From the IMG/VR virus record IMGVR_UViG_3300028048_000054: a DNA stretch of 64,000 bases; one strand, 5' to 3'. This document shows, piece by piece, positions 36,861 to 39,798 of the stretch (its first letter is position 1; each line of letters starts with the position of its first letter). Under the pieces are notes generated by a model. It was given only the letters and a program-made list of their open reading frames with translations. It was not told the origin of the DNA and did not search any database. A program made the position numbers and the translations under genes. This DNA is from a virus (lineage: Duplodnaviria > Caudoviricetes).

Positions 36861-37811
36861 ATGAATAGACCAAAACCCATATATGAGTTTTTGTTGTGGG
36901 CCAACTGCAACAATCACTGTAAATTTTGTTTTCAACAACATCAGGGGCAGAAAGATACTTTTCTGTCTGATGAACAGAAGATTGAGTCAATTCAGTCTGT
37001 AAGAAATTTTATAGCCAGCAAGGATTATATCTTCGGCAGCCACGTTTTAATTGTGGGCGGGGAAATCTTTGGTGGCTTTTCTTCTGCTAAATTATCGTTA
37101 GAATTTGAAAATTTTTTGGACTTCCTGATTAAACGTATGATTGTTGGGAAGATAGATTTATTGTATGTCAACACAAATCTACTCTATGATAACTTGGAAA
37201 GTCTTGTATATTTTTTGGATAAAATTGATAAAAACAATTTATTTGGACGATTAAAATTTACTACGTCCTATGATTATAGTGGTAGATTCAGTAGTGAAGA
37301 AGATAGGTCCACTATGTTAAGCCACCTAAAAGTACTCACCAATAACTATAAAGGTAAATTAAAGGTTGTTACCAATATGATTCTCACAAAACCTATGTGT
37401 AACGCAATCATACACGATATAGACTTGTGGTGCCCAGGACTTGTAAATATACACAAAGGCAGTATTGCTGGGTTTATGGAACAGTATAATTGTGAAGTTA
37501 ACACAGTTCCATATATTATTTTAGATGAGTCATTGGCTGCAACAAAGGAAGAGATTATCGAAGCATTAAAAAGAACAGACCACTTTATTCCTGGGTACTT
37601 TAAGGCATACGTTGACAATTTTAATTTGGACCAAGACAAGTTCTTGTATGAATATCACGCTGGGAACTTGAATAAATTAGTGTTTTGCTCTACAGAAAAT
37701 GCACCCTGTGGGCACAGTATAAATTTTAACAGGTATCAGACAGATAGGAAGACTTGTTTCGTGTGTGATATGTTAAAAGCATACAAGGAATATTCTAATG
37801 AAAATAAGTAG
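36861..37811 (+). CDS. Radical SAM protein 1
   Basis: WANCNNHCKFC (CxxxCxxC), IVGGEIF, TTSYDYSGRF, C-terminal PCGH...CFVCD. Confidence 0.9.
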   Translation: MNRPKPIYEFLLWANCNNHCKFCFQQHQGQKDTFLSDEQKIESIQSVRNFIASKDYIFGSHVLIVGGEIFGGFSSAKLSLEFENFLDFLIKRMIVGKIDLLYVNTNLLYDNLESLVYFLDKIDKNNLFGRLKFTTSYDYSGRFSSEEDRSTMLSHLKVLTNNYKGKLKVVTNMILTKPMCNAIIHDIDLWCPGLVNIHKGSIAGFMEQYNCEVNTVPYIILDESLAATKEEIIEALKRTDHFIPGYFKAYVDNFNLDQDKFLYEYHAGNLNKLVFCSTENAPCGHSINFNRYQTDRKTCFVCDMLKAYKEYSNENK

Positions 37812-39798
37812 TAACGAAAAAGACGGGGACTGTTTTACTATTGGTGGTGTTACCTACATATATGTTGGGTGTGACATCAATGGTATGGACATTTATAAAT
37901 TAGATAAGAAGGTGGCTCACGAAGTTGCTGTTGTTTCTACCTGCCGAGTTACAGAAGAGTACAGACAGGCTGGTATAAAGGCACTAAATGATTATATTGA
38001 TTCCCACCCAAATTCAGAGATAATTATAACAGGGTGTGATGCCAAAGTCCACCCAGAGTTTTATTCAAAATATGGAAAGGTTATGAATAAGGAAGAGTTA
38101 CTATCATATTTCAAATTATCTGATAGGGATGTTTCTTCCTTACCAGAAACTGCCCGCCTTCACAATATGGTTGAAGTACAGCGTGGGTGTTCTCATCAAT
38201 GTACTTACTGTTTCTTTCCACAGGCGCAGGGTCCTACAAAATCTGTAGACCCAAATATTGTCGTAGAACAATGTAATAAACTTATCAGCAAAGGTATTAC
38301 TAATATTGAGTTGGTGAGCACTGATGCGTGCAGTTATTCATATAATGATAATGGTGTTATTATACACTATAGTGATTTACTGAAATTGATTTTGAAGAAA
38401 TGTCAAGGTCTTACTCATTTGAATATAGGGCAATTAGACCCAGGCTCTTCAGAAGCACAAGAAATTATGGGTGTAATATACCGTAATCCTATATTTGAAC
38501 AAGAAGTACATTTGGCTGTTCAAAGTGGGTCAAATGAAATACTTTCTAAAATGAAACGCCGCCACACTGTTGAGTCGATAAGAAAGTTACACAAGTTCTT
38601 ACCTGGACTCCATTTTATGTGGGACATTATTGTTGGATTCCCTGGTGAAACAGATGATAATTTTAAAGAAACTTATAATCTAATGAGTGAATTGAAACCA
38701 GAGAAAGTGTGGGTATATGCTTTTAACAGACAGCCAAATACGGTTGCTGACTCAATGGACAACCAACTTCCTGATGATATTATCTTAAAAAGGAAACAAC
38801 AACTGGAAGATTTACAAGTCAAAATCACCAAATTCTATGAAGAAACGAATAAGGAAATGGCAGACACGTTAGGTGAAAATAGAACCAATGATGTTCGTTT
38901 TATTCAGTATGAAGTATGGAAAGATTGTTCAAATGGGTGTCCGTTTTGTTATAATAGAAATCAACCGAAAGAAGTAAACAAGATAGGTCGTATGAATTAT
39001 ATTATGGACCTTATGAAATCTGATGAAGTTGACGCATACAATACAATGGGTTTTATTGGTGGAGAGTTATTTAATACGGAATTACTAACCGAAGCCGAGC
39101 AGGACACCTTTGTAAAAATGATGTCTTTAAGTGCCGACCTTGTTAGCAGTGGAAAAATTGATAGGGTGTATGTTACAAGTAATCTAATCTATGCTGATAC
39201 TTCATTACTTGTGCGTGTTTTGAATATGCTCAAAGACAAGGATGTCATAGACCACTACTGTTTGTGTACTTCGTGGGATTATAAATATAGGTTCAAAACA
39301 GAAAATGATAAAAGATTGTGGGAAAGGAATATGCTTTTTATCAAAGAAGCATACCCAACACTAATGCGCCATATTGAAACAATTATCACCCAAGTTTTAA
39401 TTGATGCTGTGATGGCAGGTGAGTTAGATTTAGGTATGTTTGAAAAGACCTACGGGGCTTCTGTTGATTATATGGCACCTAATGCTGGGTATAATTATTC
39501 TTCTAAACAGGAATTTGAGAAAGATATACCAGGATTCTTCCCCAGACGTAGTGCCTTTTTAGATTTTCTTACAAAAACTACTCTTGAAGATAAGACAATT
39601 AATCTTAAAACACTATTCAAACGTGAATTACAGTGTGATTGTATTTACTGGGTGTTAAATGGAAAACCTTATAAAGTTACCAACAGAGTTACTACGGCTG
39701 TTCCTTTTCCGTGTGATATGCCTAGAATTGCTGGGTATATCGACTCTGATGTGTTTATGAAAAATGATGTGAAAGAATTTAGGGAAATGGTGTTATAG
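37798..39798 (+). CDS. Fusion: MiaB/RimO/MtaB-like methylthiotransferase (no TRAM) plus second radical SAM domain
   Basis: UPF0004-like Cys triad (VGCDIN, STCRVT, TGCDA); QRGCSHQCTYC; HLAVQSGSNEILSKMKRRHT; DIIVGFPGET; then from ~38890 YEVWKDCSNGCPFC, FIGGELF, TSWDYKYRF. Confidence 0.85.
   Translation: MKISSNEKDGDCFTIGGVTYIYVGCDINGMDIYKLDKKVAHEVAVVSTCRVTEEYRQAGIKALNDYIDSHPNSEIIITGCDAKVHPEFYSKYGKVMNKEELLSYFKLSDRDVSSLPETARLHNMVEVQRGCSHQCTYCFFPQAQGPTKSVDPNIVVEQCNKLISKGITNIELVSTDACSYSYNDNGVIIHYSDLLKLILKKCQGLTHLNIGQLDPGSSEAQEIMGVIYRNPIFEQEVHLAVQSGSNEILSKMKRRHTVESIRKLHKFLPGLHFMWDIIVGFPGETDDNFKETYNLMSELKPEKVWVYAFNRQPNTVADSMDNQLPDDIILKRKQQLEDLQVKITKFYEETNKEMADTLGENRTNDVRFIQYEVWKDCSNGCPFCYNRNQPKEVNKIGRMNYIMDLMKSDEVDAYNTMGFIGGELFNTELLTEAEQDTFVKMMSLSADLVSSGKIDRVYVTSNLIYADTSLLVRVLNMLKDKDVIDHYCLCTSWDYKYRFKTENDKRLWERNMLFIKEAYPTLMRHIETIITQVLIDAVMAGELDLGMFEKTYGASVDYMAPNAGYNYSSKQEFEKDIPGFFPRRSAFLDFLTKTTLEDKTINLKTLFKRELQCDCIYWVLNGKPYKVTNRVTTAVPFPCDMPRIAGYIDSDVFMKNDVKEFREMVL

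Follow-up and report, generated by a model that had tools for sequence, protein, structure and literature searches.

A TRAM-less methylthiotransferase core fused to a second radical SAM domain in a rumen phage cassette with Ser/Cys-tailed proteins

Introduction

The known substrates of methylthiotransferases (MTTases) are tRNA A37 and Asp89 of uS12, and the enzyme that makes methylthio-F430 has yet to be identified (PMC10702137). According to Anton et al., TRAM is the domain by which MTTases bind RNA, and in RimO it is adapted to a protein substrate (PMC2952846). In FbiC, which combines CofG and CofH, independently acting radical S-adenosylmethionine (SAM) domains carry out successive steps of one pathway (PMC8498797). 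Here we describe a fusion protein of 666 aa, encoded at 37798..39798 (+ strand) of IMG/VR record IMGVR_UViG_3300028048_000054 (Duplodnaviria; Caudoviricetes), a stretch of 64 000 nt referred to below as the window. The protein consists of an MTTase core without TRAM, a linker and a B-type domain of a small radical SAM family, as assigned from an uninterrupted open reading frame (ORF), profile matches and a homolog alignment.

The source is a large uncultured rumen phage. The fusion protein is carried by a 171-kb contig, and the same DNA recurs in many bovine-gut sequencing runs. In the open-access literature, neither a TRAM-less MTTase fused to a second radical SAM domain nor phage poly-Ser/Cys tails were found described; the MTTase core presented here has a novel domain architecture and belongs to a novel clade, within a possibly new kind of phage protein-modification system. 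We give a probability of roughly 0.55 to the reading that the MTTase core serves as an optional module for tailoring by methylthiolation, joined by a tether to one of the four radical SAM enzymes that modify the Ser/Cys-rich tails of two neighbouring proteins.

Results

The N-terminal half is a methylthiotransferase core

Residues 1-110 (37798..38127, +) form an auxiliary-cluster (UPF0004-like) domain with C25, C49 and C80, delimited by a weak Pfam UPF0004 match (residues 37-87, 23.7 bits against a cut-off of 27) and by an alignment to RimO 4jc0 that begins at residue 39. Residues 111-345 (38128..38832, +) form the MTTase radical SAM core, assigned by Pfam Radical_SAM (8.6e-20, residues 125-295), by MiaB 7mjv and by Foldseek. 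The three auxiliary cysteines stand in the contexts GC(DI)N (C25), STC (C49) and TGC (C80) and align with those of bacterial MTTases, and the core carries CSHQCTYC at 131-138, QSGS at 242-245 and IIVGFPGET at 277-285.

The MiaB/RimO family profile TIGR00089 was matched over residues 40-347 with E=2.5e-57. Among the subfamily profiles, MtaB (TIGR01579) was the best for the N-terminal half (E=6e-56) and RimO the weakest of three, and all curated cut-offs were missed (194.6 against 251 bits for TIGR00089, 190.4 against 357 for MtaB, 148 against 355 for MiaB and 116 against 357 for RimO). Sequence matches to solved structures were obtained with MiaB 7mjv over residues 120-343 (E=7e-22) and with RimO 4jc0 over 42-344, and a Foldseek search with the N-terminal half of the model returned an MtaB model (9a6d, 4e-23), MiaB 7mjz (5e-19) and RimO (1e-16). 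A PHROGs search with the fusion gave no match. In the GenBank phage collection 38 records matched the N-terminal half only, many of them resembling bacterial contigs, and none of these spanned at least 80% of the query. Folding was performed with alignment A2; alignment A5, sound in the N-terminal half with TRAM residues smeared over the C-terminal domain, served only for the motif columns and as source of the MTTase profile, and alignment A4 was discarded after MAFFT had placed the radical SAM cores of stand-alone MTTases onto columns of the C-terminal domain.

A short linker lies where TRAM would follow

No TRAM domain (PF01938, PF18693) was found in the fusion by Pfam at E<=0.01. Solved MiaB is homologous in sequence up to its residue 387 and RimO up to its residue 362, which we take to be roughly where the TRAM domains of these enzymes start. 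The corresponding place is occupied by a linker of 21 aa (residues 346-366; 38833..38895, +), seen in the model and the alignment as the end of a helix followed by a disordered stretch. The predicted local distance difference test score (pLDDT) is below 50 at residues 351-364, which are predicted to be disordered, and linker identity is just 8-29% among members that are at most 47% identical overall. There is no space for TRAM, the MTTase core and the first strand of the barrel that follows being only about 21 residues apart. TRAM is likewise absent across the whole phage MTTase clade, split forms included, and it can therefore be argued that the substrate is reached via cassette partners and not by an RNA clamp.

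The second domain belongs to a small radical SAM family

Residues 367-666 (38896..39795, +) form the second radical SAM domain, assigned by paralogy and fold, with CSNGCPFC at 377-384, GGE at 421-423, C490 and C639. It is paralogous (20-32% identity) to the products of 36861-37811 and 39800-40711 and to the C-terminal part of that of 40708-42231, all of which share the invariant positions W, C-N-C-FC, GGE, S-D-RF and a distal Cys. When orthologs from two distant phages are included, four conserved types (A, B, C and D) can be told apart among them. The fused domain is of type B and is without the CGH...CxxC end motif present in A, C and D; its only cysteines outside the cluster loop are C490 and C639, and the C-terminal Cys-rich auxiliary-cluster motif of SPASM/twitch domains was not found in it.

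The model of the domain is a radical SAM partial TIM barrel with a pLDDT of 86.6 and a predicted template modelling score (pTM) of 0.86, and combines the superfamily features CxxxCxxC, GGE and a partial (beta/alpha)6 barrel. The best sequence-profile match among solved structures was the peptide epimerase YydG/EpeE (E=5e-5), and Foldseek returned viperin (1e-6), EpeE (3e-6), SkfB, SuiB and anSME. The domain thus resembles peptide- and protein-modifying radical SAM enzymes (YydG/EpeE, SkfB, anSME, SuiB) and is unlike the MTTase core. It is acidic in all members (isoelectric point (pI) 5.0-5.4), dissimilar to a typical RNA clamp.

The viperin match has to be set beside a different reading, by which the cassette makes or modifies a small molecule, a nucleotide or a nucleic acid, and the tailed proteins are unrelated neighbours or carriers of sulfur or clusters. 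Besides viperin as top Foldseek match, weak viperin profile matches in paralogs A and C speak for it, as does the position of the cassette at the border of a replication module (RNA ligase, helicase, DNA methylase), and MTTases normally act on adenine C2. The prokaryotic viperin family profile NF038283 has, however, a cut-off of 180 bits, whereas paralog A scored 25.2 and paralog C 15.2, and the fused domain was not listed at all; we regard this reading as unlikely.

An exhaustive profile search recovered 960 cluster representatives of the small radical SAM family, most of them stand-alone proteins of about 300 aa. The family looks phage-only, judged from its nearest Atlas clusters, which are 100% viral. 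Variant architectures were noted among the members P0129, P0150, P0130, P0135, P0139 and P0143: one has an intein-like insert (with weak Intein_splicing and Hint matches), one is a tandem double domain of 602 aa, and several proteins of 600-620 aa carry an N-terminal domain of about 290 aa that lacks a family assignment.

The fusion is a genuine, conserved enzyme

The fusion is a real, conserved enzyme and no assembly chimera. Its architecture is shared, at 30-82% identity, by 12 further full-length homologs of 653-673 aa, which stem from different samples and assemblers. C25, C80, C131/C135/C138, C377/C381/C384, GGE, C490 and C639 are invariant in the homolog alignment; at position 49, 11 of 12 members have the Cys and one has C49S. 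The gene is covered by a 12-kb contig of an independent bovine-gut DNA study, with 36 substitutions and 0 gaps. The stretch 38850-38900, where the sequence-only reading had asked that a chimeric junction be looked for, is also crossed without an indel by a metatranscriptome contig and by short contigs of two further studies. Within the ORF, the substitutions listed for strain X5 comprise 25 synonymous and 6 non-synonymous changes distributed across both halves (14 and 4, respectively, in the N-terminal half), and the MTTase half and the C-terminal domain diverge at similar rates. By these counts, both halves are under purifying selection. An artefact of assembly or gene calling that joined two genes would draw on the low-complexity linker, and nothing else was found in its favour; against it stand the 12 homologs, the independent bridging contigs and a junction at which no stop, frameshift or conserved internal start Met was found among the aligned members, so that this explanation is scarcely credible.

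Every motif that the sequence-only reading had named was present in the ORF. Its description of TRAM as replaced by a complete second radical SAM domain holds, given the Pfam result without TRAM, the 21-residue linker and the 300-aa domain that follows. The three clusters and two active sites that it had postulated fit the conservation of three Cys sets (C25/C49/C80, C131/C135/C138 and C377/C381/C384).

The fused proteins form a separate clade within a conserved cassette

In a tree of MTTases, 13 fused and five unfused phage MTTases and one protein automatically named 'MtaB' formed one clade (SH-aLRT, the Shimodaira-Hasegawa-like approximate likelihood-ratio test, 100), apart from the named MtaB, MiaB and RimO groups with support of 100 on both sides of the split. 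The clade thus falls outside all three groups in the comparison that the earlier reading had called for. The tree comprised 58 rows and was obtained by a quick LG+G4 search with archaeal and eukaryotic e-MtaB (CDKAL1) outside the sample; the named references were E. coli MiaB and RimO, two records of the 'phages' collection and metagenome proteins named by their source.

Every sampled member of the clade adjoins small radical SAM paralogs. The fused form is present in the window and in three of the further loci compared (L001, L002 and L010), of which L010 has an extra stand-alone MTTase next to its fused copy. Unfused forms are found in L008, where two MTTases in tandem precede a pair of stand-alone B-type genes and are surrounded, like these, by A, C, D and a tailed protein, and in L023, where an unfused MTTase lies beside four small radical SAM genes. 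The split MTTases of L008 carry a C-terminal extension of about 110 aa. The link of the fusion to the radical SAM family of the locus, claimed earlier from the window, is borne out in both forms, the C-terminal domain being the orthologous B-type and members of the MTTase clade lying split beside B-type genes. From the co-existence of fused and split forms it can be argued that the MTTase and the B-type enzyme therefore act in one pathway.

The cassette consists, in order, of a protein of about 230 aa, two tailed proteins of about 215-232 aa, A, the fusion, C, small unknown genes and D, and is kept whole even in loci whose fusion is only about 31% identical. In the window, the first of these genes (34422..35111, +) encodes a conserved protein that is found ahead of the tailed proteins in each of the long loci. 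It is followed by tailed protein 1 (35098..35796, +; 232 aa), a presumed substrate ending in a run of about 22 Ser/Cys residues and IFIGWWKI, and by tailed protein 2 (35798..36493, +; 231 aa), also a presumed substrate, with a tail and cap identical in kind. Paralog A (36861..37811, +) is a stand-alone small radical SAM protein of 316 aa with CNNHCKFC, assigned from the family alignment and matching phrog_1802 at 1.5e-9. The fusion ORF overlaps this upstream gene by 14 nt and stops 1 nt short of the next, and is therefore part of an operon. Paralog C (39800..40711, +; 303 aa, CCNNCDFC) was assigned from the family alignment, and paralog D (40708..42231, +; 507 aa, CNNRCSFC at about residue 195), which has an N-terminal P-loop NTPase, from the same alignment and Pfam. 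The P-loop part of D has the motif GYSGFGKT and a weak nSTAND3 match, and AAA families are matched by the relative P0128; in L001 and L002, type D is stand-alone and preceded by a separate gene of 285-301 aa. A protein of 344-360 aa, absent from the window, recurs in the cassettes at L002:13807-14841 and L020:7900-8982, and in L020 an 84-aa Cys-rich ORF adjoins its gene. Pfam gave nothing informative on the accessory proteins (344/360, 285/301 and 110-119 aa and the 84-aa Cys-rich protein).

Best profile and fold matches of the N-terminal half to MtaB and MiaB, and the retention of all catalytic cysteines, are what would be expected of a tRNA A37 methylthiotransferase (MtaB- or MiaB-like) for phage or host tRNAs, the C-terminal domain then standing in for TRAM as a module that binds RNA or makes a second tRNA modification. 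Anton et al., moreover, place recognition of the N6 substituent outside TRAM (PMC2952846). We nevertheless consider this quite unlikely. TRAM is absent clade-wide, split forms too, scores are far under the equivalog cut-offs (190 against 357 for MtaB, 148 against 355 for MiaB), and the clade lies outside those of the tRNA MTTases; the MTTase is always within the cassette of tails and small radical SAM genes, away from tRNA genes; the C-terminal domain is acidic and closest to peptide-modifying enzymes; and a sister phage (L006, see below) has lost MTTase activity.

The Ser/Cys tails as candidate substrate

Wherever a locus extends sufficiently upstream, it encodes tailed proteins, as is the case for the window, L001, L002, L003, L006, L007, L008 and L020; the contigs of L010, L021 and L022 are too short to show their presence. 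All tails share the cap [FY]-I-[GA]-[WY]-[WFM]-[KND]-[IL], in which the triplets W-W-K, Y-F-N and Y-M-D could, as a speculation, be three-residue cyclophane sites. The tails are the candidate substrate, and the kinship of the C-terminal domain with peptide-modifying enzymes fits this. A complex prediction with the fusion and the 62 C-terminal residues of tailed protein 2 gave a score of 0.01, which weighs neither way. Untailed paralogs occur directly after the tailed copy at L008:5105-5725 and L020:4869-5531 and are natural controls for the contribution of the tail.

Discussion

Proposed role

In the reading that we favour, the fusion is one polypeptide with two independent radical SAM modules joined by a flexible tether. 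Module 1 (residues 1-345) is an MTTase core in which a CxxxCxxC site is combined with an auxiliary [4Fe-4S] site of three Cys, and module 2 (residues 367-666) is a B-type enzyme, with A, C and D supplied by flanking genes. The cassette would post-translationally modify the C-terminal poly-Ser/Cys tails of both products of the two genes immediately upstream, the small radical SAM enzymes carrying out the core chemistry and the MTTase installing -SCH3 on a tail carbon as optional tailoring. In place of TRAM, being fused to the B-type enzyme or encoded next to it would bring the MTTase to its substrate, and FbiC serves as the precedent. The tails as substrate, methylthiolation and the order of steps are inferred from the gene neighbourhood. 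More tentatively, and as a possibility that we hold to be somewhat less than even, this phage MTTase clade has traded TRAM for such partners and methylthiolates Ser/Cys tails, within a multi-radical SAM system on full-length phage proteins that is like those of peptides that are made on ribosomes and modified after translation (RiPPs).

Several observations weigh against the proposed role. The full-length model shows no fixed interface between the modules (pTM 0.54), which is also consistent with two tethered modules; the C-terminal domain has, among its tied best matches by structure, viperin, which modifies nucleotides; and the tail is missing a conserved Asp-like target, such as D89 of RimO's substrate. 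The co-occurrence of the genes comes from related phage modules and is partly shared descent. In L020, a 299-kb contig with a tailed protein and six small radical SAM genes including a B-type, the MTTase is absent. In L006 and L007, residues 1-141 of the fusion, comprising the auxiliary domain and CxxxCxxC, are gone and the tails are essentially unchanged.

With the MTTase absent from L020 and decayed in L006, it would therefore be an optional tailoring step and not core chemistry, and since the tails are kept in both, their main modification is likely to be independent of methylthiolation. The neighbours of the fusion in L006 and L007 are 92-99% identical to those of the window, whereas the fusion gene itself is just 60% identical; this pattern points to a recombination event inside the cassette that replaced an allele locally. 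The truncated gene lies at L006:6001-7551 (and in L007), and the small gene before paralog A is just 40% identical.

The same two loci raise the question whether the MTTase half of the window is itself catalytically idle, a scaffold or docking domain heading to decay, with only the C-terminal domain at work. In the L006/L007 gene, besides the loss of residues 1-141, QSGS has become NSGS and a further 16 residues are deleted, with the motifs of the C-terminal domain kept; in L006 the MTTase remnant is 47% and the C-terminal domain 68% identical to the window, and L020 does without an MTTase. In the window and 11 other fusions, by contrast, the six Cys, Q242/S243 and GFPGET are conserved (one with C49S), the two halves diverge alike, and the X5 N-terminal half has its 14 synonymous against 4 non-synonymous changes, all of which makes an idle MTTase very unlikely.

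Neighbouring genes of the window

The window is densely coding on a single strand, with about 35% GC. Tail-fibre-like genes lie upstream of the cassette, and genes for an RNA ligase, a helicase, a DNA methylase and a DnaB-like protein lie downstream. Between the tail-fibre-like genes and the cassette, 30716-33890 encodes three successive Gly-rich proteins (287, 349 and 421 aa) with GGGGG runs, which share the phrases 'YLKVNGTLTVNGxLxMD' and 'GPxGSITxxxxxG', are kept in L001 and have no family match. By synteny, 42357-43034 encodes the RNA ligase and 48593-50203 (536 aa) a Cpn60/GroEL-type chaperonin, the L001 counterparts of which have RNA_ligase and Cpn60_TCP1 matches, respectively.

Significance

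If the proposed role is true, the tails would be a third class of MTTase substrate after tRNA A37 and uS12 Asp89. The choice of substrate by MTTases is an open question, and a natural clade in which TRAM has given way to a peptide-type radical SAM enzyme, either fused or adjacent, offers a direct test of retargeting, with the fused, split, decayed and absent forms in related phages as natural comparison cases. The cassette also ties an unnamed, apparently phage-only radical SAM family to poly-Ser/Cys tails in abundant rumen phages, and points to previously undescribed post-translational chemistry on phage proteins.

Comparison with known systems

MtaB (YqeV) and MiaB have the three-Cys auxiliary domain and radical SAM core of the fusion, with CxxxCxxC, QSGS, GFPGET and the same fold. 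The fusion differs from them in being without TRAM, in its scores below the cut-offs, in its separate clade, in its second radical SAM domain and in its context within a protein-tail cassette. RimO, the uS12 Asp89 beta-methylthiotransferase, has the same two-cluster core; it is to our knowledge the only MTTase that modifies a protein, and its chemistry can target a protein side-chain carbon. Unlike the phage enzyme, RimO has retained TRAM in a form adapted to the protein on which it acts (PMC2952846), belongs to a distinct clade and acts on an Asp for which the phage tails have no conserved counterpart.

From the enzymes that modify peptides and proteins, namely the epimerase YydG/EpeE, the sactisynthases SkfB and CteB, SuiB, ChlB and anSME, the B-type domain differs in being without the SPASM/twitch Cys motif, A, C and D having their short CGH...CxxC; and the presumed phage substrate is the tail of a folded protein of about 200 aa and not a short leader-core peptide. 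FbiC, the FO synthase of F420, is built from radical SAM families unrelated to those of the fusion, acts on a small molecule and has no sulfur-insertion module. It is like the phage fusion in carrying two full radical SAM domains in one polypeptide, a pair that in other genomes is encoded by separate genes.

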